A stretch of 64,000 nucleotides of DNA, from assembly GCF_022846255.1 (NCBI RefSeq), contig NZ_AP025682.1; one strand, written 5' to 3'. Both the position numbers and the translations under genes were made by a program. The notes beneath the pieces were generated by a model, which was not told the DNA's origin, did no database searches, and worked only from the letters and a program-made list of their open reading frames with translations. The stretch is from Escherichia coli. Its GTDB lineage: Bacteria; Pseudomonadota; Gammaproteobacteria; Enterobacterales; Enterobacteriaceae. Position 1 is the stretch's first letter; each line of letters opens with the position of its first letter. Below, piece by piece: positions 17,859 through 49,760 of this stretch.

Positions 17859-18875
17859 ATGAGTGCCCACTATTTTAATCCACAAGAGATGATCAATAAG
17901 ACAATCATCTTCGATGAAAGGCCAGCGGCGTCAGTGGCATCATCATTCCATGTTGCTTATGGCATTGATAAAAACTTTCTTTTTGGTTGTGGTGTTTCAA
18001 TCACGTCAGTTTTGTTACATAACAACGACGTGAGTTTTGTTTTCCACGTTTTTATTGATGATATCCCTGAAGCTGATATCCAGCGTTTAGCCCAATTGGC
18101 GAAAAGCTATCGTACCTGTATCCAGATCCATCTGGTAAATTGTGAACGGCTTAAGGCATTACCGACGACCAAAAATTGGTCTATTGCCATGTATTTCCGT
18201 TTTGTAATTGCAGATTACTTTATTGATCAACAAGATAAGATCCTTTACCTGGATGCTGATATCGCCTGTCAGGGAAACTTAAAGCCGCTGATAACAATGG
18301 ATCTTGCCAATAACGTTGCTGCTGTTGTTACTGAACGCGATGCTAACTGGTGGTCGTTACGGGGTCAAAGTCTGCAGTGTAATGAACTTGAAAAGGGTTA
18401 CTTTAATTCAGGTGTCCTGTTAATTAATACACTAGCGTGGGCGCAGGAGTCCGTTTCTGCTAAAGCGATGTCGATGCTTGCTGATAAAGCCATCGTTTCC
18501 CGTTTAACCTATATGGATCAAGATATCCTTAATCTTATCCTGTTAGGGAAAGTTAAATTCATTGATGCTAAATACAATACGCAATTTAGTTTAAATTATG
18601 AATTAAAAAAATCATTTGTTTGTCCAATTAATGATGAAACCGTATTAATTCATTATGTCGGCCCGACAAAACCCTGGCATTACTGGGCCGGTTATCCAAG
18701 TGCGCAACCTTTTATCAAAGCCAAAGAAGCATCGCCCTGGAAAAATGAACCGTTAATGCGGCCAGTTAACTCAAACTATGCTCGTTATTGCGCCAAGCAT
18801 AATTTTAAACAAAATAAACCAATTAACGGGATAATGAATTATATTTATTATTTTTATTTAAAGATAATAAAATGA
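17859..18875 (+). CDS. waaO: Outer-core family-8 glycosyltransferase, by position WaaO (alpha-1,3-glucosyltransferase)
   Basis: 338-aa ORF with GT8 hallmarks (YGIDKNFLFG..., YLDADI..., NSGVLLIN); first gene after waaP as in R1/R4 core loci; assignment rests on family plus gene order. Confidence 0.7.
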   Translation: MSAHYFNPQEMINKTIIFDERPAASVASSFHVAYGIDKNFLFGCGVSITSVLLHNNDVSFVFHVFIDDIPEADIQRLAQLAKSYRTCIQIHLVNCERLKALPTTKNWSIAMYFRFVIADYFIDQQDKILYLDADIACQGNLKPLITMDLANNVAAVVTERDANWWSLRGQSLQCNELEKGYFNSGVLLINTLAWAQESVSAKAMSMLADKAIVSRLTYMDQDILNLILLGKVKFIDAKYNTQFSLNYELKKSFVCPINDETVLIHYVGPTKPWHYWAGYPSAQPFIKAKEASPWKNEPLMRPVNSNYARYCAKHNFKQNKPINGIMNYIYYFYLKIIK

Positions 18876-18891
18876 AATTGAGAAAAGTTAA

Positions 18892-19887
18892 ATGAATGAA
18901 TTTATAAAAGAACGGTTTTCGTATTTAGCAGATAATAAAAAAGAAAACGCCCCAGAGCTAAATGTTTCCTACGGTATCGATAAGAATTTTTTGTATGGTG
19001 CTGGCGTTTCAATTTCTTCCGTTTTGATTAATAATTCAGATATTAATTTTGTCTTTCATGTTTTCACTGATTATGTGGATGATGATTATTTAAAGTCATT
19101 TAATGAAACAGCAAAACAATTTAATACCTCAATTATTGTATATTTAATTGACCCCAAATACTTTGCTGATCTGCCGACGTCACAGTTTTGGTCGTACGCG
19201 ACATACTTCAGGGTATTGTCTTTTGAATATCTGAGTGAAAGTATTTCCACACTGCTGTATCTGGATGCCGATGTTGTTTGTAAAGGAAGCCTGAAACCTC
19301 TCACAGAAATTATATTTAAAGATGAGTTTGCTGCGGTCATTCCTGACAATGATAGTACTCAGGCGGCATGTGCAAAACGCCTCAACATTCCCGAAATGAA
19401 TGGACGTTATTTCAATGCAGGCGTTATCTATGTCAATCTTAAAAAATGGCATGAAGCAAATTTGACACCGTATTTACTCACGCTTTTACGAGGGGAAACT
19501 AAATATGGCTCTCTTAAATATTTAGATCAGGATGCGTTGAATATCGCATTTAATATGAATAATATCTACCTCGCGAAGGATTTTGATACTATTTATACCC
19601 TGAAAAACGAACTTCATGATCGTAGTCATCGAAAGTATCAGCAAACCATTACCGATAAAACAGTATTGATTCACTATACAGGGATAACTAAACCATGGCA
19701 TAGCTGGGCTGGATATCCGTCTGCATCATACTTTAATATCGCGCGTGAACAATCTCCCTGGAAGAAATATCCTCTTAAAGAGGCGCGGACTGTTGCAGAA
19801 ATGCAGAAACAATATAAGCATCTGTTTGCCCATGGTGAGTATATAAAAGGCATAACTTCATTAATTAAGTACAAGCTTAAGAAATAA
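18892..19887 (+). CDS. waaT: Outer-core family-8 glycosyltransferase, by position WaaT (alpha-1,2-galactosyltransferase)
   Basis: 331-aa GT8-like ORF (YGIDKNFLYGAGVSISS..., YLDADVVCKG, NAGVIYVN); second GT8 gene in the operon. Confidence 0.6.
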   Translation: MNEFIKERFSYLADNKKENAPELNVSYGIDKNFLYGAGVSISSVLINNSDINFVFHVFTDYVDDDYLKSFNETAKQFNTSIIVYLIDPKYFADLPTSQFWSYATYFRVLSFEYLSESISTLLYLDADVVCKGSLKPLTEIIFKDEFAAVIPDNDSTQAACAKRLNIPEMNGRYFNAGVIYVNLKKWHEANLTPYLLTLLRGETKYGSLKYLDQDALNIAFNMNNIYLAKDFDTIYTLKNELHDRSHRKYQQTITDKTVLIHYTGITKPWHSWAGYPSASYFNIAREQSPWKKYPLKEARTVAEMQKQYKHLFAHGEYIKGITSLIKYKLKK

Positions 19888-19896
19888 ATTACTCTT

Positions 19897-20589
19897 ATGA
19901 TTACAAGTATACGTTATCGCGGCTTCTCATTTTATTACAAAGATAATGATAATAAATATAAAAAAATCTTTGATGAAATACTGGCCTATAATTTTAAAAC
20001 AGTAAAAGTATTACGTAATATTGATGATACCAAAGTATCGTTGATTGATACGAAATATGGTCGCTATGTTTTTAAAGTCTTTGCTCCGAAAACGAAAAGG
20101 AATGAACGTTTTTTAAAATCTTTTGTAAAAGGTGACTACTATCAGAATTTGATCGTTGAAACCGATCGTGTCAGAAGTGCAGGTCTTACTTTTCCTAATG
20201 ATTTTTATTTTCTGGCTGAGCGTAAAATTTTCAACTATGCCAGTGTTTTTATCATGCTTATCGAGTATGTCGAGGGCGTAGAGCTCAATGATATGCCGAT
20301 TATTCCAGAAAATGTTAAAGCAGAAATTAAGGCTTCAATGGAAAAATTGCATGCCTTAAATATGCTATCGGGCGACCCACACCGGGGTAACTTTATCGTT
20401 AGTAAAGATGGTGTCAGGATAATTGACCTATCCGGTAAAAGCTGTACGGCAGAGCGTAAAGCTCGTGATCGTCTGGCCATGGAACGTCACCTGGGTATTG
20501 CCAACGAAATAAAAGATTATGGCTACTATTCAGTAATCTACAGAACCAAACTACGCAAATTTATTAAAAAATTAAAAGGCAAAGCGTAA
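19897..20589 (+). CDS. waaY: LPS core heptose(II) kinase WaaY
   Basis: 230-aa ORF MITSIRYRGFSFYYKDNDNKYKKIFDEILAY... with kinase-like motifs (HGDPHRGNF); right size and position for WaaY. Confidence 0.8.
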   Translation: MITSIRYRGFSFYYKDNDNKYKKIFDEILAYNFKTVKVLRNIDDTKVSLIDTKYGRYVFKVFAPKTKRNERFLKSFVKGDYYQNLIVETDRVRSAGLTFPNDFYFLAERKIFNYASVFIMLIEYVEGVELNDMPIIPENVKAEIKASMEKLHALNMLSGDPHRGNFIVSKDGVRIIDLSGKSCTAERKARDRLAMERHLGIANEIKDYGYYSVIYRTKLRKFIKKLKGKA

Positions 20590-20614
20590 ACCACACAGTC
20601 AAAACGGAACCAAC

Positions 20615-21643
20615 ATGGATTTATTAGCTGAGAGTATTACTGAAGTCGCTGTCTCTGGGGAAATTGCTAACACCGATCGTGTGTTAAATATCGCTTACGG
20701 TATTGACCGCAACTTTTTATTTGGTGCGGCAGTATCTATGCAATCAGTTGTTATGCATAACCCGGACCTTGCGGTTAAGTTTCATCTCTTTACTGACTAC
20801 ATTGATGAAGATTATCTACAACGTGTTAATGCTTTTACCAGCAAAAATGCTAACGTTGAAGTAAGAATTTATAAAGTATCCAGTGCCTTTATTGATATCT
20901 TCCCCAGCCTGAAACAGTGGTCTTATGCAACATTCTTCCGTTTAGTTGCGTTCCAGTATCTGAGTGAAACTATTGAAAATCTGTTATATATCGATGCTGA
21001 TGTCATCTGTAAAGGCTCATTAGCTGGATTGCTTGATATTAATTTTGATGGCGATAAGTTCGCAGCTGTTATTAAAGATGTGCCTTTTATGCAGGAAAAA
21101 CCAGCGAAGCGTCTGGCTATAGAGGGGCTTCCAGGGAATTATTTCAACGCCGGTGTAGTATATCTGCAGCTTGAAGCATGGGCGAAAAATGATTTTATGA
21201 ATAAAGCCATTGCTATGCTGGCAAGTGACCCGCAGCACACGAAATATAAATGCCTTGACCAGGATATTTTAAATATTCTGTTCTTTGGTCATTGTATTTT
21301 TATTAGCGGCGATTATGATTGCTTTTATGGCATTGACTATGAGTTAAAAAATAAAAGCGATGAAGATTATAAAAAGACCATTACCGATGATACTAAGCTG
21401 ATTCATTATGTTGGCGTAACGAAGCCCTGGAACGACTGGACGAATTATCCCTGCCAGAAGTATTTTAATGAGGCTTATCAGGCTTCTTGCTGGAATGATG
21501 TGGCGTTTATTCCAGCAACGAATGAAAAGCAGTATCAAGTGAAATCCAGACATTTGAAAAGAAATGGTAAAATTGCATCTTCATTTTACTATTTCATGCT
21601 CTATTATAGTAAGAAAATAGCGCGTAAGCATTTTTCCAAATAA
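20615..21643 (+). CDS. waaW: Outer-core family-8 glycosyltransferase, by position WaaW (alpha-1,2-galactosyltransferase)
   Basis: 342-aa GT8-like ORF (YGIDRNFLFGAAVSMQS..., YIDADVICKG, NAGVVYLQ); third GT8 gene, following waaY. Confidence 0.6.
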   Translation: MDLLAESITEVAVSGEIANTDRVLNIAYGIDRNFLFGAAVSMQSVVMHNPDLAVKFHLFTDYIDEDYLQRVNAFTSKNANVEVRIYKVSSAFIDIFPSLKQWSYATFFRLVAFQYLSETIENLLYIDADVICKGSLAGLLDINFDGDKFAAVIKDVPFMQEKPAKRLAIEGLPGNYFNAGVVYLQLEAWAKNDFMNKAIAMLASDPQHTKYKCLDQDILNILFFGHCIFISGDYDCFYGIDYELKNKSDEDYKKTITDDTKLIHYVGVTKPWNDWTNYPCQKYFNEAYQASCWNDVAFIPATNEKQYQVKSRHLKRNGKIASSFYYFMLYYSKKIARKHFSK

Positions 21644-21674
21644 TTATTAAGATTAATCATCCAGAGATTTTTTA

Positions 21675-22448
21675 ATGAACTTGCCCATTTATATTGTCTC
21701 ACTTAAAAGAGATATTGAGCGAAGAAATAAAATAAATGATGTTTTTCATCGATTAAATATTAATTTTGATTTTTTTGATGCCATAGATGCTAAAGACCCT
21801 CAAAATAAAGAAATTATTGATAAAATGAGATTAAGTGGTGTCGGCGCAGAAATGACTGATGGAGAAATTGCTTGTACATTAAGTCATCAGCTTATATATC
21901 AGGATATGATAGATAAAAATATAGAATGGGCAGTCATTCTCGAGGATGATGTTATCGTCAATGAGAGATTTAAAAAATTTCTGCAATATTTTAATCTTTC
22001 TGAAAAAGACAAGTTAAAACATAATAATTTGTATTTGCTTGGAGGACAGAAAGGATTACATGATTATCCGGTATTGGGGCAAAGCCTTTTTAGTAAAGTT
22101 AAGGTAAGTACTTGTACTTTTCGGCGTGTTAATTTCAATAAAAATAAAATTCGGCGTACATGTTCATATTTGATGAATAAAGATATGGCACAAAAGTTGC
22201 TCAAATTGACAATGGATTGTGGCACCTATCGAGCTGATAGCTGGAAGTTAATGCATCAACATAATATTATAAAAGATTTTTATTTAGACGAAATAATATT
22301 ACATCCTATTTTAAATGAGTTTAATAGTCACCTTGAAAGTGAAAGGCTTTTAATATCGGAAAAAAAACAACCCAGGACAAGGCTTCAGAAAAAAATGAAG
22401 TTTATACGTTCCTGGATAAAGGTGGCTTTTTTTTCTCTTTTGAAATGA
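21675..22448 (+). CDS. Family-25-like beta-glycosyltransferase (LgtB/Lic2A-like): WaaV (R1) or WaaX (R4)
   Basis: 257-aa ORF MNLPIYIVSLKRDIERRNKINDVF...FDFFDAIDAKD...ACTLSHQLIYQDMIDKN...AVILEDDVIV resembles LgtB-type transferases; I cannot tell WaaV from WaaX without a reference alignment. Confidence 0.7.
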   Translation: MNLPIYIVSLKRDIERRNKINDVFHRLNINFDFFDAIDAKDPQNKEIIDKMRLSGVGAEMTDGEIACTLSHQLIYQDMIDKNIEWAVILEDDVIVNERFKKFLQYFNLSEKDKLKHNNLYLLGGQKGLHDYPVLGQSLFSKVKVSTCTFRRVNFNKNKIRRTCSYLMNKDMAQKLLKLTMDCGTYRADSWKLMHQHNIIKDFYLDEIILHPILNEFNSHLESERLLISEKKQPRTRLQKKMKFIRSWIKVAFFSLLK

Positions 22449-22482
22449 GATTGTTAATTTAAATTTATTGTGAGATATTAAC

Positions 22483-23736
22483 GTGGAAGTAAAAATTGAG
22501 CAATTTCGAAATAACAGCTGTAATTTTATTTTTTTATTATATTTAATCGGTTTATTGTTTGTGCCAATTGATCTAAATATTACCACTAAAATAATTAATG
22601 CTACAGGTGCATTTTCTCTTTTTTTATTAATTGTAAATAACAAGCATAATTATAATAAAAATATCATTATATTAATTCTTGGCTTACTTCTTTTGGGTGC
22701 AATGAACCTGATATGGTATGAGTTTTATAAAACAGAAGATGTAGTATATAGAAATGCTTATCGAGGCTATCTTGAGTCTGGAAAACTATTAGTATTTAGC
22801 TCGTTGACATTTTTATTACTAAGTAAAAATAAATTCAGGCAAAATGAAAAGCTACATTTTATTTCAGCTATCTTAGTTCAAATAATCATGCTATGTAGAG
22901 CATATTATCAAGGGATATATTTGCATGCAGACCGCATTCCCCTCTCCGCCATGAATGGGAATATTGGTCAGATGGGGGCAGCGACTATTGCGGCTTATGT
23001 GATTACATTCACTACTTTATATTCTTCAATTGTATTCATCAAAATGCAATCGAAATATAAATGGTTTCTATTTTATGCTAACTTTGCTTTAAGCTTTGCA
23101 GCAGTAATGATGACAGGAACACGTGCGGCAATTTTCACATTCCCACTTATGATTATGGTCATATTATTTCTTCAGCATCGTGATCAAAAAGTGTTTTTAT
23201 TTAAAGGATTGAGTGGTGTTTTTATATTGCTACTTGCTTGTGGTTTGATATTTAATAAGGAAATTGAGAGGCGAATTAATTCATTAAAAGCTGATGTTAT
23301 TTCATATGCTACAAAAAATAACAGTCAATCCTCGGTCGGAGCACGTTTTGCAATGGTTAATGCAGGAATTAAAGGAAGTCCTGATGGTTTTAATTGGCAA
23401 TCTCTTGAGCAGCGTGCTGAAAAGATAAAAGCATTAAGTGCAGAAAATAATATTTATAGTGGAGCTTTATTATTCCTTGATGTACATATGCATAATGAAA
23501 TTGTTGAATCTCTTTCCACGAAAGGAAAAATTGGTCTTCTTGTTCTTATTATGTTCTATGTTGCAATGATCTATTACTGTATCCGGGAGAAAAAATATAT
23601 ACTCTTGGTTTTCCCTGCTTCTATTATGTTATTTGGCATTAGTGATGTCATTACACATGCTAAACCAATACCGGCATCGTGGATTGTGTGCCTCTTCCTG
23701 TCTATATCGTTTTTGAGTAAAAAAGAACCACAATAA
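22483..23736 (+). CDS. waaL: O-antigen ligase WaaL (polytopic membrane protein)
   Basis: 417-aa, highly hydrophobic, AT-rich ORF at the end of the central waa operon; the track start is a GTG at 22483 and the true start is uncertain; called from position and topology rather than sequence identity. Confidence 0.7.
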   Translation: MEVKIEQFRNNSCNFIFLLYLIGLLFVPIDLNITTKIINATGAFSLFLLIVNNKHNYNKNIIILILGLLLLGAMNLIWYEFYKTEDVVYRNAYRGYLESGKLLVFSSLTFLLLSKNKFRQNEKLHFISAILVQIIMLCRAYYQGIYLHADRIPLSAMNGNIGQMGAATIAAYVITFTTLYSSIVFIKMQSKYKWFLFYANFALSFAAVMMTGTRAAIFTFPLMIMVILFLQHRDQKVFLFKGLSGVFILLLACGLIFNKEIERRINSLKADVISYATKNNSQSSVGARFAMVNAGIKGSPDGFNWQSLEQRAEKIKALSAENNIYSGALLFLDVHMHNEIVESLSTKGKIGLLVLIMFYVAMIYYCIREKKYILLVFPASIMLFGISDVITHAKPIPASWIVCLFLSISFLSKKEPQ

Positions 23737-42273: not shown

Positions 42274-42357
42274 GCCGGATGCGGCGTGAACGCCTTATCC
42301 GGCCTACAGGGTAGTGCTGAATCACCCCGTAGGCCTGATAAGCGTAGCGCATCAGGC
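42274..42357. repeat. BIME: two inverted REP elements between the adhesin gene 3' end and the lldP promoter
   Basis: GCCGGATGCGGCGTGAACGCCTTATCCGGCCTAC followed by inverted REP GTAGGCCTGATAAGCGTAGCGCATCAGGC. Confidence 0.75.
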
Positions 42358-42389
42358 AATGTGGCGTTTACCCATTTGTTAATGGATCA

Positions 42390-45300
42390 TTACCACTGAA
42401 TACCAGCACCGAGTGCGGCGGAGTATTCACCCTGGCTATTGGTACTACCTTGTAATTTGTAGACCCAACGACCATTGGCGCTCACCATCGACACACCTAA
42501 AGCAACAGCCGATTCACCGTTGTAAGTACCGCCACCAATAGACGCCATGCTGGCACCCGGCGTGTAAGCCTGCGGCAGACCGGTCATTGCCATTGCAGAA
42601 GCGATACCACCACTCAGCTTGCTTTCAGTTTTGGACAGTTTGTTATCCATCTCAACCATGCGCTGATCGGTGTATTGCTTCGTTTCCTGCACACTTTGCT
42701 TCAACTGCGCATAGTTCACTGCGTCGTTGTTGTTCACGCCAGCAGAAACGTTGCTGATGCGAGTCGTACCGCTATTGCCGCCACCGAGAGTGATGTTGCT
42801 GTAGTCGATAGAGCCATCAGCTTTGGTGTCGTAGCGCACGCCGCCTGCTTCAGAAGACTTCAGTTGCGAAACGTTAACCGCATCGGTGGCATTAACACCG
42901 GCAGCAACGTTGGTGATACGGCGCTGGTTGGTAGAAGAACCCACAGAGATCGTATTTTCTTCGTCTGCTACGGAACCCGTGCCCAGTGCGACGCTGTTGT
43001 CAGCGGCAGCAATGGAACCAGAACCAATCGCAACACTGTCTTTACCCTGCGCGTTGGCGTCTGCGCCATCGGTGTTGGTCTTGAAGTACTTAGTGCTACC
43101 GGTGGTTACGATATCGCCAATGCCGTTTTCGATATTGGTCACGCGAGTATCCAGATTAGTGACCTGAGTGTTCAGGTTAGTAATGCTCTGGGTATTCTGG
43201 GAAACCTGCGCGTCCGTTACTTTCAACTGACCCACGTTAACCGCATCGGTATCCGCCGAACCTGCTGCGACGTTGGTGATCTGACGTTGACCGTCTTCAC
43301 TGCCGACAGAGAACTCACCCACAGAGTTCTGCGGTGCGTCCATGTTGTAGGCAGTGTAGTTGGTCTGCGCGCCACGGGTAGTCTGAGAACCATTACCCAT
43401 TGCAATGCTGTCGGCATGATTTGCGCGTGCGTTAGAACCGATAGCAATACCGTTGATCGCATCAGCCAGAACTAAAGTGTTCAGGCCGATACCAATACCC
43501 GCATTACCATTAACGATGGTTTTCGCGCCCATTGCCAGCGAGTCTTCACCGACTGCCAGTGAGTCTTCAGCCGTTGAGTTGGCGTGATAGTATTTGGTTG
43601 GTGTGGTTGCGACTGCACCAATGGCGTTCTGCAACTGGCGAACAGTAACAGCGTCATGGGCTTCAGAACCATCCGCGACGTTGATGATTTGACGATATTT
43701 ACCATCATCACCGATCGACAATGCACCAAGCAGTTCGCCGTCAGTTGTGTCATAACCAATAACCACTCCATCTTCTGTTACGCTGGTAGAGCGTGAACCT
43801 TTCAAAATGACCCGGTTAGAGACCGAATTGCTGCCTAATGCGATGCCGGAATCGATAGTGCTACTGCTGTTCTGACCAATCGCGACACTGCTTTCCCCGG
43901 AAGCGACAGAGTTATAACCCACAGCCGTTGAGCCAACGCCCGCGGCGCTTGCGTCGACAAAGGTTAAGCCCGTGTCGTTGGTGCGAACATAGTTAATACC
44001 CGCCCCATTTTCTTCGATATAGGTACTGTTAGTATTACCGGCGAGTTGGTTGATGATCTCACTATTCTGATTGATCAACATATTCGCGGCATACAACTGA
44101 GAACCGTTAACGGCATCGGTACTGGCGGCAGAAAGTTCACCTGCGGCAACATTCGTGATTTTGCTGGTGGTGTTAGTGCCGTGCGCCGCAGAGAATGAGC
44201 CGGATACGGAATCCCACGTCATCGCATCTTCACCGAGACTGTCGATAGCATCAGTCAGATTGGTGATGTTGGTAGTGTTAGTGGCAACGTCAGTGGTCAG
44301 ATTACTGATATTGGTGGTGTTGGCTGCCACATTCTCGTTGGTAGTATTCAACTGAGAGCCATTAATCGCATCAGTACTGGTGGCACTGATCTCACCCGCA
44401 GCAACATAAGCGATTTTGCTGGCACTACCACCGTGACTGGCACTGAAACTGCCTGAAGCGTTGTCCCAGAGCAGGGCATCGCCGAGTGAGGTTCCGACCG
44501 AAGTGTTAATGGCTGCCAGGGCATCGCCTACGCTGTTGTAGTCAGTTCCATTAATACTATAGGTTGGGCCAGTAAATACACCTGTATCACTTACAGTGGC
44601 ACCGCCACCAAAATAATCCGCTACCGTACTGCTAAGACCGTAGAGTTGTCCACCGTTCACGGCATCGGTACTGGTGGCAGAAATAGCACCTGCGGTGACA
44701 TTGGTGATTTTGCTGGTGGCGTCAGTGCCGTGCGCAGCGCTGAATGCTGTGCCCTTCCACAACAGAGAATCGTCACCGAGACTGTCAACAGCGTCAGTCA
44801 GGTTAGTGATACTGGTGGTATTGCCAGCGACGTCGTTGGTCAGATTAGTGATATTGGTAGTGTTGGCAGCAACATCGTCTTTGGTGGCTTTCAACTGCGA
44901 ACCGTTAACGGCGTCAGTGCTGCCAGCTGTCAGGTCACCGGCTTTGACATTGGTGATTTTGCTGGTGGCGTCAGTGCCGTGCGCAGCGCTGAATGCTGTG
45001 CCCTTCCACAACAGAGAATCGTCACCGAGACTGTCAACAGCGTCAGTCAGGTTAGTGATACTGGTGGTATTGCCAGCGACGTCGTTGGTCAGATTAGTGA
45101 TATTGGTAGTGTTGGCAGCAACATCGTCTTTGGTGGCTTTCAACTGCGAACCGTTAACGGCGTCAGTGCTGCCAGCTGTCAGGTCACCGGCTTTGACATT
45201 GGTGATTTTGCTGGTGGCGTCAGTGCCGTGCGCAGCGCTGAATGCTGTGCCCTTCCACAACAGAGAATCGTCACCGAGACTGTCAACAGCGTCAGTCAGG

Positions 45301-47021
45301 TTAGTGATACTGGTGGTATTGCCAGCGACGTCGTTGGTCAGATTAGTGATATTGGTAGTGTTGGCAGCAACGTCGTCTTTGGTGGCTTTCAACTGCGAAC
45401 CGTTAACAGCGTCAGTGCTGCCAGCAGTCAGGCTGCCAGCACTGACGTTGGTGATTTTGCTGGTGGCTTCGGTGCCGTGTGCGGCACTGAATGCTGTGCC
45501 GTTCCACAACAGAGCATCCTGCTGCAGGTCGTACAATTGAGAGCCGTTTACTACATCGGTGCTGGTTGCAGAAACCGTACCTTTAGCAACATTAGTGATT
45601 TTGTTGGTGGCATTTGCACCGTGATTGGCGCTGAACGCCCCCGCGGTTTTATTCCATTGTAGGGTATTATTGTCGATTCCTGACAGAGCATCACCCACGT
45701 TATTATAGGTTCCGCTTCTCAACGCGTAGCTTACTGCGGTTACGGTGCCATCGCTGCCTACAGTAGCGCCTCCTCCGAGTCGCTTGGCGACTGAATCACT
45801 GATCGTATAAAGCTGTGAGCCGTTGATGGCATCGGTACTGGTGTTGCTTATGGCACCAGCAGCCATATTAACAATTTTGCGTTTTGTTGCGCTGTTGCCA
45901 ACTGAAACCGTATTGCTTGCATCTGTGGTCGATCCTGCGCCGATAGCGACAGAATTGTCGGTCGCTGCTGCAGCCCCTACACCGAGGGCGACAGAATCAT
46001 TGCCGTTTGCCCTGGACTGGCTACCGAAAGCAAGGCTGTTGCTGCCACCAGCGGCACTACCCTCTCCCAATGCGATGGCATTCTCTCCCGAGGACAAACT
46101 GTTACTTCCCAACGCGATTGAGTTCACTTTGCTTGCAATGCTACCTTGCCCCAGCGCAATCGCATTTTGTTCGCTGGCTTCACTGGTGTTACCTAATGCA
46201 ATACTGGATTCGCCAGATGCCTGACTTGCATTACCCAGGGCCATCGAATTCACTCCCAGGGCTTGCGTTTTGTTCCCAATCGCGATGGCGTTATCGTTCG
46301 AACTGATACTGTCAGCACCTATTGCCAGTGAGCCAGTGCTATTAGCTGTAGATTGTCTGCCGAATGCGAGGCTATCAGCACCGGCAGCATTGCTACTTGC
46401 TCCCAGCGCCATTGCATAATCTTTTGACGCATTGGCATTATCACCGAGGGCGATGCTCATAATTTCGTAAGCTTTAGCCGAATTTCCTAACGCAATAGTT
46501 TTTTCACCATCGGCAAGGGAGGAGTCCCCAATAGCAAGAGATGTATAACCATTCGTCTTTGCGTAACGACCAAAAGCCATCGAACGATCGCCATTTGCTA
46601 CTGACGATGCACCCAGCGCGACACTTCTGTCACCCATTGATTTTGCACTAACCCCGAACGCCATGGATGCTCCACCAGTTGCAAGGGTTTTTGACCCGAT
46701 GGCAGAACTGTACTCACCTTCGGCTATCGCGTCATATCCTAAAGCTGTACTCGCGCCACTAGTGTTCATAAAGGTATTTGCTTTTGCCCCTTTACCGATA
46801 GCAACCCAGCCGTCACCTGCTGAGCCATCGCCATAATCAGTTGGCTGCCCGTCGTAGTTATTAGCTAACGCTCCAAACGACGACAACAACCCACCCGCAA
46901 CCAACGCAGAAATTAACAGCTTACTGCGCCCGCTTTTTTTACCACGGCTCTTCGCCGTTTCGCTGGCAACGCTGTAACTGCCCGTCGCCGGGTTCCAGAT
47001 AACTTTAAATATTTTATTCAT
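42390..47021 (-). CDS. upaG: Trimeric autotransporter adhesin, UpaG/EhaG/SadA family (1543 aa)
   Basis: N-terminal extended signal peptide [21 protein letters not shown]...; long low-complexity stalk with tandem repeats; C-terminal YadA-like anchor ending ...[13 protein letters not shown]; located between yibL and lldP, where UpaG/EhaG sit. Confidence 0.85.
44640..45620. repeat. Tandem 249-bp (83-codon) direct repeats inside the adhesin gene, about 3 near-identical copies plus diverged flanking copies
   Basis: Segment ttggtgattttgctggtggcgtcagtgccgtgcgcagcgctgaatgctgtgccc... recurs near 44701, 44950 and 45199; the protein shows the unit [25 protein letters not shown]...[11 protein letters not shown] three times. 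Confidence 0.85.
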
Positions 47022-47064
47022 TATTGATGCTCTCTATTCCTTGATATAAGCGCAGAGGCTGCAT

Positions 47065-47748
47065 TTATTTTTTGTTTTTCCGCTGTGGAGATTCAGCAGT
47101 TTGAAGACGGTCGAACTGAATATTTGCCATGTTGATGGCTAATTTCAGATATTTGAGGTTGTTGGGCGAGACACCTTTTAGCGTCAAATTAATGTCTTGC
47201 CATTGACCTGGTAATAATTTCAGGGAGGAGTTCATTGAGGTACTAAATAGCAATTGCTGCCATTTTGCTAATGCGTTGATGTCGGTGGGTTTTTCTCCCC
47301 CCCATGTCGCGTAGAAACCCATATTTGATACAGGAACACTTAATAAGTTAACCAGTGAAATACGAATAACGCTGCCGTTTTCTACTGCGTCAATAGACAG
47401 TATTTTCCCTGCCAAACCAACAGAACCGTTATTTAAAATGAAGTATTGGGTTTGTGCCGGGTTAAATTCTGTAAAGACAAATTCGTCCTGTTTGTCTTTA
47501 ACTGCCTTCACCACGCCAGCGAGCGTTTTGGTACTGTTTATGATGGTAGTTTGTTGTTTTTCAAAGTGTTCTATCTTGCGCTTGTCGAGTTCTTGTTGTT
47601 TTTCAAGCGCCTCAATTTTGCTTTTTTGTAACTCTTGCTGTGTAACGAGATCGTCGACCTTACTCGCTTTTTCAATATAGTCACACCCTACCAATAAGCA
47701 AAGTTGCAATATCATTAACACGCTTAACAGTGTTTTCTTTAGGTTCAT
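47065..47748 (-). CDS. SadB-like lipoprotein encoded just upstream of the adhesin gene
   Basis: 227-aa ORF with lipoprotein signal peptide and lipobox (LLVGC), then a coiled-coil-like stretch (ELQKSKIEALEKQQELDKRKIEHFEKQQ) and a C-terminal domain; 43 bp upstream of and co-oriented with the adhesin gene, like Salmonella sadB-sadA. Confidence 0.65.
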   Translation of the reverse strand: MNLKKTLLSVLMILQLCLLVGCDYIEKASKVDDLVTQQELQKSKIEALEKQQELDKRKIEHFEKQQTTIINSTKTLAGVVKAVKDKQDEFVFTEFNPAQTQYFILNNGSVGLAGKILSIDAVENGSVIRISLVNLLSVPVSNMGFYATWGGEKPTDINALAKWQQLLFSTSMNSSLKLLPGQWQDINLTLKGVSPNNLKYLKLAINMANIQFDRLQTAESPQRKNKK

Positions 47749-48306
47749 AGGATGAATTCCTTTTCATAATCCCGATACAGTTGATAATTACGGCACAATC
47801 ATTTTTTTTATGAATAATTGGAGTGGGGCATATCCGCAAAATAAATTTGTTAGAGAATTTTTGTATTAATTGGTTGTGCGAATATGTTATTAAATGTCAA
47901 ACGATTTCAGTTTGTAGCCAATAATATTAATCGCGCGGATTTTAATGATCGGTGTCAATCGATGTCAAATGTTTCACCGGATAAAGGCACAGGGCATGGA
48001 AAGGTAAATATTCAGTTGAGTGATGTTTTATTGTGGAATTTGCGAAGATGATTGAAAAATTTAAATAATTAATTATGTTTCAAGCATTGATATGCGGCAA
48101 TTCATTGTTAATATTGATACATCGTTCTTTAATTTGTATCTGATTTTCAGAATTTAGCCTGGCATGTGCGCTAAAAAGAATAGAGGAGATTGAATATATA
48201 ATGTTAAGAACGTTATAAATATTCGATCTCTGAAACAGGCTCCTGCATGTGCCAGCAGGAGCGAGTAAATGGTGAGAGGCTGTGATTACAGCGACGAGAA
48301 AGGAAC

Positions 48307-48669
48307 TTAAAACGCAGTCTTTGAGAACCCTGTCATCTCTTGCAGGCCCATTTCACGGCCCAGCGCGGTCATTGGGTGCACAACCACCAGTCCGCGAACA
48401 CTTTTTTTCAGTTTGCCCATATCAGCCTGCTCTTTTTTGGTGATTGCACGCTGGAACGGCATCTTCATCAGTTTCTGCGCTTCTTTGCTGAGTTTCTGGC
48501 TGTGAACTTCGCGCAGGCGAGCAATTTCTGCTTCCAGCGTGGCTTTCTCTTTTTCCAGTTCGGCATATTTGTCTGCGGCTTCAACCAGCGATAGATCGGC
48601 CTGCTGGTGACGGATGGCGTCCAGACGATCGCTGAGACGTTTGATTTCGTTTTTTTCGACTTCTTTCAT
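48307..48669 (-). CDS. yibL: YibL (ribosome-associated protein, 120 aa)
   Basis: 120-aa [59 protein letters not shown]... Confidence 0.85.
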
Positions 48670-48952
48670 GTGATGACTTCTGATAGAGATAAATTTATAG
48701 CCTCTAGTATGCGCGACCAGGTGCTTTGTTCACAACTAATGGCATTGTAATAGTTCCAGATTGTAACCATTAATGCGTTAAAAAATCACCCAATACATTG
48801 ATTAGTTAAGAAATTTAAAGAAAAAAGATAGTCAACAGAAGCAGGTGATTATTGAGGATTGAGCACGTTTTCCTTAATGTCATTTATACCGGGATCTAAA
48901 CTAAAATTGGCGGCCGCGCATTCCCGGCGCGGGGTAATACGGAGATATCATC

Positions 48953-49162
48953 ATGGGCAAATTAGGTGAAAACGTTCCGCTTCTTATCGATAAAGCCGTA
49001 GATTTCATGGCATCCAGCCAGGCGTTCCGGGAGTATCTGAAAAAACTACCTCCCCGTAACGCGATTCCGTCCGGAATACCTGATGAAAGCGTGCCGTTAT
49101 ATCTACAACGTCTGGAGTATTATCGTCAGCTTTATCGTCCGAAACAGGTAGAGGAGAAGTAA
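48953..49162 (+). CDS. yibT: Small protein YibT (69 aa)
   Basis: 69-aa [72 protein letters not shown]. Confidence 0.8.
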
Positions 49163-49172
49163 GCGAAAGTAC

Positions 49173-49760
49173 TTACTTTTGAAAGGCTTTTTTTAAGCTG
49201 ATTTTGGAAATCAGCTCTGTCAGTGAAAGGACCATTGTTGATCGCACAGCCTGTTGGTAACGCTGAATTTGCATTGCATACAAACTGGAGTCTGCAGGTT
49301 CAAACTGTGGCGGCGGTGGTAACGCCGCCACGCAATGCAGTTCACCAAAGGGTCCAAGTATTTCGTCGTCGGTAAAAGCGTACTCGTTGCCGTCGTGATT
49401 TAGCTCTTCACGCAATGCCATCAGCAGTTCCGCATCTTCGTATTCCTGGCGGTTAATGACGCCCAACCCGTAAATGAGTTTTAAACGCACAGAAAGATCG
49501 CCCAGCGGACCATCGCCGTCGAGTAACGGTTCTACAGCATACTTCACCGCGTAATCGTCTTTGCGGAATACCTGAAGCACCAGAAGATTTACCGCCTCGG
49601 TCAAAAGCTCGACGGCGGTGATCAGAAAGCTTCGCACGGTTTTGCCAGCATTCAGACGCTCAAGCACACGGTTTTCAAAGGCCTGGGTTTGTTCCATTGT
49701 TGCCTGCATATCTGACAATCTGTTATTCGGGCGCAGGGTATCCTGCGCCTGGTCCACCAT
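49173..49760 (-). CDS. mtlR: Mannitol operon repressor MtlR
   Basis: 195-aa [56 protein letters not shown]... Confidence 0.9.
   Translation of the reverse strand: MVDQAQDTLRPNNRLSDMQATMEQTQAFENRVLERLNAGKTVRSFLITAVELLTEAVNLLVLQVFRKDDYAVKYAVEPLLDGDGPLGDLSVRLKLIYGLGVINRQEYEDAELLMALREELNHDGNEYAFTDDEILGPFGELHCVAALPPPPQFEPADSSLYAMQIQRYQQAVRSTMVLSLTELISKISLKKAFQK

Follow-up and report, generated by a model that had tools for sequence, protein, structure and literature searches.

The non-coding segment at 47749-48306 raises the question of how the lipoprotein-adhesin operon downstream of it is controlled, and whether its low GC content marks a horizontally acquired, H-NS-silenced promoter, as the first-pass annotation of this DNA had proposed. 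Positions refer to the complete stretch of Escherichia coli DNA that was analysed (64 kb, hereafter the window). Base composition, a promoter scan, and a comparison with orthologous spacers describe a region that is real but largely ordinary and of a kind already known. It is already explained, because it holds the conserved promoter and the long leader of an operon that secondary sources describe as H-NS-silenced. We read it as a composite regulatory region, in which a near-consensus sigma-70 promoter lies between AT-rich arms and is kept silent by H-NS, and assign this reading a probability of roughly 0.7.

The operon and the composition of its upstream spacer

The segment is exactly the gap of 558 bases between the yibL stop (48307) and the start of a SadB-like gene (47748), both on the minus strand. 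The SadB-like gene (47065-47748, minus strand) is the first gene of the operon. It encodes an inner-membrane lipoprotein of 227 amino acids, which matches Salmonella SadB (PDB 4C47, E = 1.4e-66) and in a 99%-identical strain carries the annotation DUF3251. After a gap of 43 bp follows the gene of a trimeric autotransporter adhesin of the UpaG/EhaG/SadA family (42390-47021, minus strand; 1543 amino acids) with the Pfam domains ESPR, YadA_head, YadA_stalk, and YadA_anchor. The gene order is lldP, adhesin, lipoprotein, yibL, yibT, mtlR, mtlD, mtlA. Judged from these matches, the locus is the sadBA / upaG / ehaG lipoprotein-adhesin operon between the mtl and lld operons. The SadB match, the ESPR/YadA domains, and the 43-bp gap thus bear out the initial description of the spacer as the control region of a lipoprotein-adhesin operon.

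The spacer has a GC content of 34.1%, compared to 50.1% for the whole window. This is the lowest value among the 13 non-coding gaps of at least 200 bp; the comparison set comprised 23 non-coding gaps of at least 80 bp with a median of 46.4%. A GC content that low was found in 5.1% of all 558-bp windows, nearly all of them at 18.6-23.6 kb. The sliding-window analysis that had been suggested earlier confirmed the AT bias: throughout a continuous tract of 726 bp (47569-48294), the second longest such run in the window, the AT content of 100-bp windows never falls below 58%. Per 100 bp, the GC content was 23-29% at 48001-48200 and 26-29% at 47801-47950; the 72 bp adjoining yibL (48235-48306) have about 45-50%. 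The AT-rich tract continues into the SadB-like gene, which at 39.6% GC is the sole ORF below 43% outside 17.9-23.7 kb. The flanking genes had been called GC-balanced, which is correct for one flank but not for the SadB-like gene.

Other proposed signatures were weaker. The A/T tracts named as a further feature are not enriched (nine A4+/T4+ tracts, compared to 11.6 ± 2.3 in shuffles), and TpA statistics of the spacer gave no excess beyond composition. A repeat search of the spacer returned nothing except a 22-nt two-copy family built around TGTCAA and weak inverted repeats. Curvature had been named alongside AT bias as a point for quantitative analysis. The AT bias is present, but predicted curvature was unremarkable in a crude, home-made wedge model of the Bolshoy type, whose noisy output put the mean at the 88th percentile; its single top-1% peak lies at 47855-47862.

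A conserved promoter in a divergent spacer

The promoter scan identified a -35 hexamer TTGACA (47963-47968, minus strand) followed after 18 bp by a -10 hexamer TAAAAT (47939-47944, minus strand) and a GC-rich discriminator, CCGCGCG. The pair matches the sigma-70 consensus at 11 of 12 positions and is the only site of at least 11/12 on either strand of the window; 3% of shuffled spacers contained a site that good or better. From its position, transcription is predicted to start at about 47931-47933 (minus strand). No other promoter-like site was detected by the scan on the minus strand between this promoter and the adhesin gene, including 47000-47748, and TTGACA-18-TAAAAT probably drives the whole sadB-adhesin operon.

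Orthologous spacers were collected via protein look-ups from Escherichia, Pseudocitrobacter, Salmonella, and Citrobacter. The set comprised 20 spacers; the analysis of a distal box (see below) used 14 allele classes. All 20 are 444-560 bp long with 29-36% GC, while their sequences diverge almost completely. The homologous promoter was the top-scoring site in each of the 20, though overall identity falls to about 40%. Its -35 hexamer is TTGACA in 17 alleles and TTGACC in the remaining three, and its -10 hexamer conforms to TA(A/G/T)(A/C)AT in all of them, at a distance of 17-18 bp that is filled by variable sequence. From the -10 hexamer to the ATG, 17/20 alleles have 172-202 nt; in the LT2/Citrobacter type the distance is 213-232 nt. 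The GC-rich discriminator is missing from the Salmonella, E. fergusonii, O157, and Citrobacter types. In every allele class, the promoter is flanked by two GC minima, one at -160 to -120 and the other at 0 to +80 (22-27% GC). By its hexamers, their spacing, and its conservation among orthologues, TTGACA-18-TAAAAT qualifies as a sigma-70 promoter with a predicted start site. The locus is a tidy example of conserved regulatory composition and architecture without conserved sequence.

The -35 hexamer also accounts for part of the "repeated TGTCAA" of the first-pass annotation. Three copies do exist on the plus strand (at 47895, 47953, and 47963; TTGACA on the operon strand). Dinucleotide shuffles of the spacer contained 0.39 copies on average and 0.6% of them reached three, in what was a post-hoc test. 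The copies do not make up a repeat element, since only the one at 47963, the -35 hexamer, is conserved. The second TTGACA (47953-47958, minus strand) lies inside the promoter spacer, at a place taken in other alleles by TTGATA, TTAATA, or unrelated sequence; together with the bases following it, it forms a weak FNR/CRP-like match (8/10) centred at -19.5. The third (47895-47900, minus strand) lies in the leader at +33 to +38, within TTTGACATTTAATAAC, of which the ATTTAATAA part alone is partially conserved. No usable -10 hexamer was found downstream of it.

Upstream of the promoter lies an AT-rich arm (48001-48200, minus strand; roughly -70 to -270 relative to the predicted start). Nowhere else in the locus does the sequence vary as much: identity to other E. 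coli alleles is 54-62% here, compared to 100% in yibL. The arm contains a conserved distal box, TCTGAAAAT (48143-48151, minus strand), at about -215 from the predicted start. The 8-mers TCTGAAAA and TTTGACAT are the only ones common to nine of the 14 allele classes. In nine of the 14 classes the box core CTGAAAA is located at -206 to -218 from the promoter, and a tenth has the one-base variant CCGAAAA. The core lies 122-157 nt from the yibL stop; what is kept is its spacing to the promoter, not that to yibL. The window contains two copies of the TCTGAAAAT box where 0.54 are expected. On this conservation, the box is a candidate operator of some factor. Compared by eye across the alleles, TCTGAAAAT fits no CRP, Cra, Lrp, Fis, IHF, SlyA, sigma-54, or sigma-32 consensus known to us. 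As a sigma-54 site, it would have a spacing of 11 to the upstream GG, not the 12 that we take to be needed.

The predicted 5' leader (47749-47932, minus strand) extends over about 184 nt from the predicted start to the SadB-like gene and is AT-rich. Its fold is no more stable than that of shuffled sequences (z = -0.52). The minimum-energy fold includes an inverted repeat, CAAUUAUU-CAUAAAAAA-AAUGAUUG (47796-47820, minus strand), which could be a weak AU hairpin or else a palindrome at the DNA level. Within it lies the only homopolymer of at least 7 bases (A8/T8). A related repeat, CATTCAT ... ATGAATG, is retained in E. coli-type alleles and in Pseudocitrobacter. The leader ends with a Shine-Dalgarno sequence, AAGGA (47758-47762, minus strand), read from the sequence 9 nt before the SadB-like ATG (47746-47748). 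The sequence AAAAGGAATTCATCCT-ATG is identical across all E. coli-type alleles.

The opposite end of the spacer is different in kind. The piece at 48235-48306 (minus strand) forms two hairpins, including GCUCCUGC-UGGCACAU-GCAGGAGC at 48239-48262. The fold of 48215-48310 on the minus strand has -26.9 kcal/mol (z = -3.87), and none of 200 shuffles was as stable. Between E. coli alleles the piece is 88-100% identical, with the rest of the spacer at 54-62%. The tail after the hairpin at 48239-48262 is a weak U-run, CUGUUUC, and the terminator scan reported none. The piece is probably the terminator or 3' UTR of yibL and would lie outside the control region of the adhesin.

H-NS silencing and competing explanations

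Repression of upaG by H-NS, to which the first pass had appealed, is indeed reported, in secondary sources citing Totsika et al. (2012): a review table gives "hns deletion derepresses upaG". UpaG is also counted among the H-NS-repressed autotransporters (PMC5012682). The spacer fits such silencing, as its length and AT content are conserved despite the divergence of its sequence and its AT-richest stretches lie on both sides of the promoter. We propose the upstream arm (48001-48200) and the leader (47749-47932) as candidate H-NS binding tracts, the latter downstream of the start.

Read along the minus strand, the region would consist of five parts: the yibL 3' end with its hairpin (48306-48235), an upstream tract, the promoter, the leader, and the ribosome-binding site of the SadB-like gene. 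The upstream AT-rich tract would span about 270 bp and be hypervariable save for the TCTGAAAAT box at about -215. We infer that H-NS occupies the spacer and that its silencing is two-sided. It would coat the AT-rich DNA flanking the promoter on either side, continue into the 40%-GC sadB gene, and by this coat exclude or trap RNA polymerase. An intrinsically strong promoter may thereby stay silent until some signal relieves H-NS.

The same features could belong to an ordinary intergenic region without any silencing, given that low GC is normal for promoters, UP elements, and leaders. In agreement with this, the non-coding gaps of the window average 46% GC versus 50% for its genes, and the specific H-NS motif is not enriched, nor is curvature as predicted by the crude model. 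For the high-affinity nucleation motif tCGATAAATT (Lang et al., 2007, PMC2094087), we found one match with up to two mismatches in the spacer compared to 2.2 ± 1.5 in shuffles, and 16 compared to 13.6 with up to three. However, the spacer has the lowest GC of the 13 longer gaps, and AT content and length are what its alleles have conserved while the sequence changed. Furthermore, an hns-dependent repression of upaG is reported in the literature cited above, and the adhesin is silent in culture despite its near-consensus promoter: SadA was not detectably expressed in culture, and native inducing conditions are not established (Grin et al., 2014, PMC3953254). We therefore consider an unsilenced, ordinary region unlikely.

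More weight is due to the idea that a specific regulator, and not H-NS, exerts the main control, although we still regard it as doubtful. A factor binding the TCTGAAAAT box, or FNR and Fur, would switch the promoter on, for example in anaerobiosis, and AT-richness would be secondary. The box is among the only two 8-mers conserved across classes and has kept its distance to the promoter. In published arrays, expression of Salmonella STM3690 dropped 5.7-fold when fnr was mutated and 4.2-fold when fur was, with putative sites for both Fur and Fnr flagged at -400 to +50. In contrast, across all 20 spacers a search for the FNR site TTGAT-N4-ATCAA returned no match of at least 9/10 and none near -41.5. 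The sole recurrent 8/10 match is the one centred at -19.5, from where a bound factor would repress, and its conservation does not extend beyond E. coli; this allele has 8/10 matches centred at -19.5 and -161.5 only. The LT2-type spacer used in the arrays is without the TCTGAAAAT box at that position. A specific regulator would also be compatible with H-NS silencing combined with an anti-silencer.

The fur result has a further side. In the anaerobic Salmonella fur mutant, in which the sadB homologue STM3690 was 4.2-fold down at a marginal p = 0.046, hns was 3.1-fold up, and the authors of the Fur-regulon paper concluded that H-NS-repressed genes decrease in this mutant. The Salmonella arrays report on the LT2-type spacer, which can be aligned with the present one only at the promoter.

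Two further accounts were assessed by searching the spacer for a gene or a switch of its own. The length of the spacer, the predicted leader of about 184 nt, and a plus-strand ORF of 55 codons (47884-48051) might suggest that it hides a small RNA, a small protein, or a leader of the riboswitch type. This is very improbable. A scan of 47000-49300 with the covariance models of Rfam 15 gave 0 matches at E up to 1, and the leader fold is not unusually stable. The ORF was rejected as a gene: it is broken in a 92%-identical allele, and neither it nor any other small ORF is conserved or has a Pfam match. No ORF of at least 25 amino acids is common to the allele classes, and RefSeq has no annotated feature beneath the spacer in the E. 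coli matches listed. Phase variation, by Dam methylation of GATC or by homopolymer slippage as in some other adhesin operons, is hardly credible. One GATC is located in the promoter spacer by the -10 hexamer (47947) and the A8/T8 run lies in the leader, but the spacer contains two GATC compared to 1.6 expected, and these are lost in other alleles. There is no sign of slippage at the T8 run, because its length is identical in all close alleles; in other alleles the position is not homopolymeric. No repeats of an invertible element were found.

Probable allele replacement and the origin of the locus

The notion of horizontal acquisition concerns the origin of the AT-rich DNA, which might be the edge of a recently inserted foreign island. 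The spacer and sadB have 34-40% GC in a 50% GC genome, K-12 is without the operon, as are 1,261 of 5,426 complete E. coli genomes, and identity between E. coli alleles drops from 100% to 54-62% at about 48235. Nevertheless, in four Escherichia species as well as in Pseudocitrobacter, Salmonella, and Citrobacter, the operon occupies the same site, flanked by yibL and lldP. The K-12 state is a clean loss of 5,973 bp, from one base after the yibL stop to a REP-like element; a deletion, of about 5 kb, was also concluded by Grin et al. (2014, PMC3953254). The region occurs as a single copy and never on plasmids, no integrase, IS element, tRNA, or flanking direct repeat accompanies it, and the adhesin gene itself has about 52% GC. 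The same-site synteny in four genera and the K-12 deletion argue against recent insertion, which we regard as improbable.

What does seem to occur is replacement by very divergent alleles, and to this extent the idea of acquisition is partly right. E. coli has alleles with an identity of only 42-70%, which points to allele replacement. At least three deep spacer families exist in E. coli (the family of the window, an O157/Shigella family, and the K-12 deletion), with sub-alleles that are 65-80% identical. The best match of the present spacer, at 99.1%, was found in a strain from a bat.

Relation to known systems

The upaG locus of UPEC CFT073 and Nissle and the ehaG locus of EHEC O157:H7 are the same chromosomal locus and operon, reported as H-NS-repressed in the accounts available of Totsika et al. 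(2012, AEM 78:2179). The Nissle upaG spacer is 95.7% identical to the one analysed here. The O157-type spacer is only about 42-47% identical, yet the O157 ehaG spacer shares with it the promoter, the box (at -217), the length (542 bp), and the GC content (33%). Salmonella sadBA has the same arrangement and likewise lies between the mtl and lld operons, its trimeric autotransporter gene beginning about 44 bp after the lipoprotein gene (Grin et al., 2014, PMC3953254). The lipoprotein described here is about 53% identical to Salmonella SadB over the crystallised part. The Salmonella LT2-type spacer differs: it has 487 bp, its TTGACC-18-TATCAT lies 232 nt before the ATG, and the -215 box is absent.

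The classical H-NS-silenced promoters proU, bgl, and hilA have binding regions on both sides of the promoter. The present locus resembles them in having AT-rich DNA up- and downstream of a competent promoter that is silent under laboratory conditions, with H-NS binding being predicted here. It differs in that its spacer is without a close match to tCGATAAATT. A second likeness concerns the core promoter. The rrnB P1 and fis promoters combine a GC-rich discriminator with a non-optimal spacer. In sequence, the present promoter resembles them by its consensus-like hexamers, the CCGCGCG discriminator, and the 18-bp spacer. A discriminator and a spacer of this kind could on their own render a promoter weak or condition-dependent, with no silencer needed.

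These results leave the published picture of an H-NS-repressed operon, as conveyed by secondary sources, unchanged. The adhesins UpaG, EhaG, and SadA are widespread among pathogenic E. coli and Salmonella and have been considered as vaccine and surface-display scaffolds, while their natural expression conditions are not established (Grin et al., 2014, PMC3953254). The locus offers experimental handles in the promoter upstream of the lipoprotein gene, the two AT-rich arms, and the distal 9-mer conserved across alleles that cannot be aligned. As a tentative extension of H-NS silencing, the spacer may be a silencer module of conserved composition and hypervariable sequence, in which selection keeps length, AT content, core promoter, and TCTGAAAAT, and the box might be the operator of an anti-silencer or activator. 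If this is true, the factor binding TCTGAAAAT would deliver the long-sought natural signal for the expression of SadA, UpaG, and EhaG.

Operon identity and base composition of the spacer

The AT-rich region proposed in the first-pass annotation as the control region of a lipoprotein-adhesin operon corresponds exactly to the non-coding spacer (47749-48306, 558 bp) upstream of that operon. All surrounding genes lie on the minus strand, in the order lldP, adhesin, lipoprotein, spacer, yibL (48307-48669), yibT, mtlR, mtlD, and mtlA. The trimeric autotransporter adhesin (42390-47021, 1543 aa) carries ESPR, YadA head, stalk, and anchor domains and is separated by 43 bp from the gene of the SadB-like lipoprotein (47065-47748, 227 aa). 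Because the lipoprotein matches the sequence of the Salmonella SadB crystal structure (4C47, E = 1.4e-66), the locus is assigned by homology to the sadBA/upaG/ehaG operon, for which a single transcript was inferred from a 44-bp gap (Grin et al., 2014; PMC3953254). The window is E. coli chromosomal DNA: the best match of the spacer was found in strain A3 (99.1%), and the flanks of the locus share 98-99% identity with other E. coli.

The strong AT bias that had been claimed was borne out by GC windows: the spacer has a GC content of 34.1% compared to 50.1% for the window, and it is the lowest among the 13 non-coding gaps of at least 200 bp (median of the 23 gaps of at least 80 bp on a crude ORF map, 46%). 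An equally low GC content was observed in just 5% of 558-bp windows, nearly all of which belong to another AT-rich cluster (18.6-23.6 kb). This second region (17859-23736) comprises six consecutive plus-strand ORFs with only 30-38% GC and probably represents a cluster of the LPS-core (waa) type; no AT-rich stretch in the window is longer than the one it includes (21435-22976).

The true AT-rich stretch extends from 47569 to 48294. The flanks had been described as GC-balanced, which does not hold on the lipoprotein side, since a low GC content (~40%) persists through the entire lipoprotein gene, the only ORF of low GC content apart from those in the cluster at 18-24 kb. The 72 bp adjacent to yibL are not AT-rich, form a stable hairpin (z = -3.87), and are kept between alleles that are otherwise wholly different; they were ascribed to the 3' end of yibL. 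For A/T tracts, TpA steps, and AT runs, the spacer showed no excess over composition.

Predicted promoter and its conservation

The reported repetition of TGTCAA is real, with three copies in the spacer, all on the plus strand (0.39 expected from shuffled spacers; 0.6% of shuffles reach three in this post hoc test). On the operon strand, TGTCAA reads TTGACA. One copy (47968-47963) serves as the -35 box of a predicted sadBA promoter, followed by an 18-bp spacing and TAAAAT (47944-47939), and matching the sigma-70 consensus at 11 of 12 positions. No other site on either strand of the 64 kb reaches at least 11/12, and such a site was contained in 3% of shuffled spacers. The other two copies, one inside the promoter spacing (47958-47953) and one at +33 in the leader (47900-47895) without a usable -10 downstream, are not conserved among orthologous spacers.

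Transcription is predicted to start near 47932, resulting in a leader of ~184 nt that showed no significant fold (z = -0.52) and holds a weak conserved inverted repeat (47796-47820). A scan of the minus strand from this promoter to the adhesin gene found no further promoter-like site, as would be expected if the operon were transcribed as one unit. Between the -10 box and the predicted start (47931-47938), the discriminator reads CCGCGCG. Alleles of the E. coli window type, of E. marmotae, and of Pseudocitrobacter share it, whereas the Salmonella, E. fergusonii, O157, and Citrobacter types do not. Together with the 18-bp spacing, it might render the promoter sensitive to supercoiling or ppGpp.

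Orthologous yibL-sadB spacers were gathered from eight E. coli allele classes including O157:H7, from E. marmotae, E. ruysiae, E. fergusonii, and Pseudocitrobacter, and from two Salmonella types and two Citrobacter species. Overall identity drops to 65-80% among E. coli alleles and to ~40% from genus to genus, a level at which the sequences can hardly be aligned. The homologous promoter was nevertheless the top promoter-like site in all 20 spacers, with the pattern TTGAC(A/C), 17-18 bp, TA(A/G/T)(A/C)AT, located 172-232 nt upstream of the start codon; the sequence between the hexamers varies. The site thus shows a clean phylogenetic footprint of a promoter.

All 20 spacers measure 444-560 bp with 29-36% GC. 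Aligned on the predicted start, every allele class exhibits two GC minima, at -160 to -120 (mean 23%) and at 0 to +80 (22-27%), and a local maximum of ~35% over the promoter. In the window, the upstream arm (48001-48200) has 23-29% GC and the leader-side arm (47801-47950) 26-29%. No part of the locus diverges more than the upstream arm: compared with other E. coli alleles, yibL is 100% identical, 48022-48221 54-62%, and sadB 75-85%. Hence length, composition, and architecture of the spacers are conserved, whereas their sequence is not.

Only two 8-mers were common to 9 of 14 allele classes, TTTGACAT at the -35 box and TCTGAAAA further upstream. The latter belongs to a distal box (48151-48143, minus strand) whose core, CTGAAAA, is placed at -206 to -218 relative to the predicted start in nine classes, including O157, E. 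fergusonii, and one Salmonella type; Pseudocitrobacter has the one-base variant CCGAAAA. As the distance to the yibL stop is more variable (122-157 nt), it is the promoter, not yibL, to which the box is coupled. It matched none of the operator consensus sequences with which it was compared by eye.

Two Salmonella enterica loci (L014 and L021) differ strongly in both spacer and SadB. The LT2-type spacer (487 bp, TTGACC-18-TATCAT) resembles Citrobacter, and the other is closest to E. fergusonii (52% spacer identity).

Predicted silencing by H-NS

A near-consensus promoter with conserved AT-rich DNA on both sides, upstream of an adhesin (SadA) not detectably expressed in culture (Grin et al., 2014; PMC3953254), corresponds to the standard picture of H-NS silencing. 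H-NS repression, which had been cited for adhesins of the upaG/ehaG type, is stated for upaG in literature citing Totsika 2012, according to which hns deletion derepresses upaG; UpaG is also listed among H-NS-repressed autotransporters (PMC5012682, citing the same work), and both UpaG and EhaG are named in the title of Totsika 2012. The spacer of the window shares 95.7% identity with that of Nissle upaG. The upaG and ehaG spacers share only ~42-47% identity but have the same architecture, a pattern that would be compatible with control through base composition and not through a particular sequence. In anaerobic Salmonella, the sadB homologue STM3690 was down 4.2-fold in a fur mutant, where hns was up 3.1-fold, and down 5.7-fold in an fnr mutant. 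These data may lend indirect support to H-NS silencing.

Several points weigh against a strong claim: neither the tCGATAAATT motif nor A-tracts are enriched in the spacer, its predicted curvature, which had been named alongside the AT bias, is unremarkable by a crude estimate, and none of the alleles examined has a canonical FNR site. Other roles were considered. An ordinary spacer is contradicted by the extreme and conserved composition. A hidden RNA or small protein was rejected, as no Rfam match, conserved ORF, or structured leader was found, and so was a phase-variation switch, since GATC is no more frequent than expected by chance and the T8 run does not vary. We regard the spacer as the sadBA promoter region, predicted to be silenced by H-NS, with a probability of roughly 70% for both parts jointly; the promoter assignment by itself deserves higher confidence.

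Origin of the locus and allele replacement

Horizontal acquisition, in the sense of an inserted island, is not supported. In all four genera, the operon is found at one common site; it is single-copy and never plasmid-borne, and its absence from K-12 is due to deletion. K-12 lacks exactly 42333-48305, a gap that begins one base past the yibL stop, finishes in a REP-like element, and is in line with the "5-kb deletion" described by Grin et al. (2014; PMC3953254). Among 5,426 complete E. coli genomes, 1,880 carry a window-family spacer (identity bands of at least 98%, ~95.5%, ~92%, and ~70%), 2,267 the O157/Shigella type, and 1,261 the K-12 deletion junction; these three types account for 5,408 genomes and thus nearly the full set. 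SadB falls into classes ~99, 88, 78-80, and 67% identical to the window protein across E. coli and Shigella, compared to 99-100% for the neighbouring YibL across E. coli loci. Given the common site, the K-12 deletion, and this contrast, the locus appears to be old yet replaced by very divergent alleles. On the yibL side, the replacement breakpoint lies inside the spacer, near 48235.

REP-like palindromes (GCCTGATGCG...CTTATCAGGCCTAC) are located directly downstream of the adhesin stop (~42300-42372), and the K-12 junction falls inside one of them. The mtlR-yibT-yibL DNA (48306-49500) is just 93.5% identical to K-12, with identical YibL protein, but several further E. coli strains match it at 99-100%; the flank is thus itself mosaic. 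In E. coli 24AR0376 (L008, 1-3121), IS1 and fimbrial usher/chaperone genes adjoin yibL in place of the operon, leaving a spacer remnant of only 121 bp. Two metagenome-assembled genomes labelled Oscillospiraceae and Collinsella (L010, L011) contain E. coli yibL-sadB DNA (YibL 100% identical), most likely by bin contamination.

Within the adhesin gene (44783-45286), TGTCAA recurs every 249 bp (plus strand 44783, 45032, 45281; minus strand 44944, 45193), a spacing indicative of tandem 83-codon repeats within the passenger domain; this repeat region shows the greatest difference between strains. The O157:H7 sadB-like gene (L022, 1821-1836) has TAG at codon 3 (ATGAACTAG), with the RefSeq CDS starting 15 nt later, and that of strain 2012C-4221 (L005, 516-1200) carries a frameshift annotation. 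In some lineages, decay of the chaperone-like lipoprotein may be under way.

The initial observation is real. Its main reading is a reasonable one and has in essence been published before for this operon, with three corrections concerning TGTCAA as a -35 box, the lack of a recent insertion, and the missing enrichment of H-NS-specific sequence features. New are the position and conservation of the promoter, the composition profile with its two arms, the box at -215, and the deep allelism; these details are of use to specialists, yet incremental.
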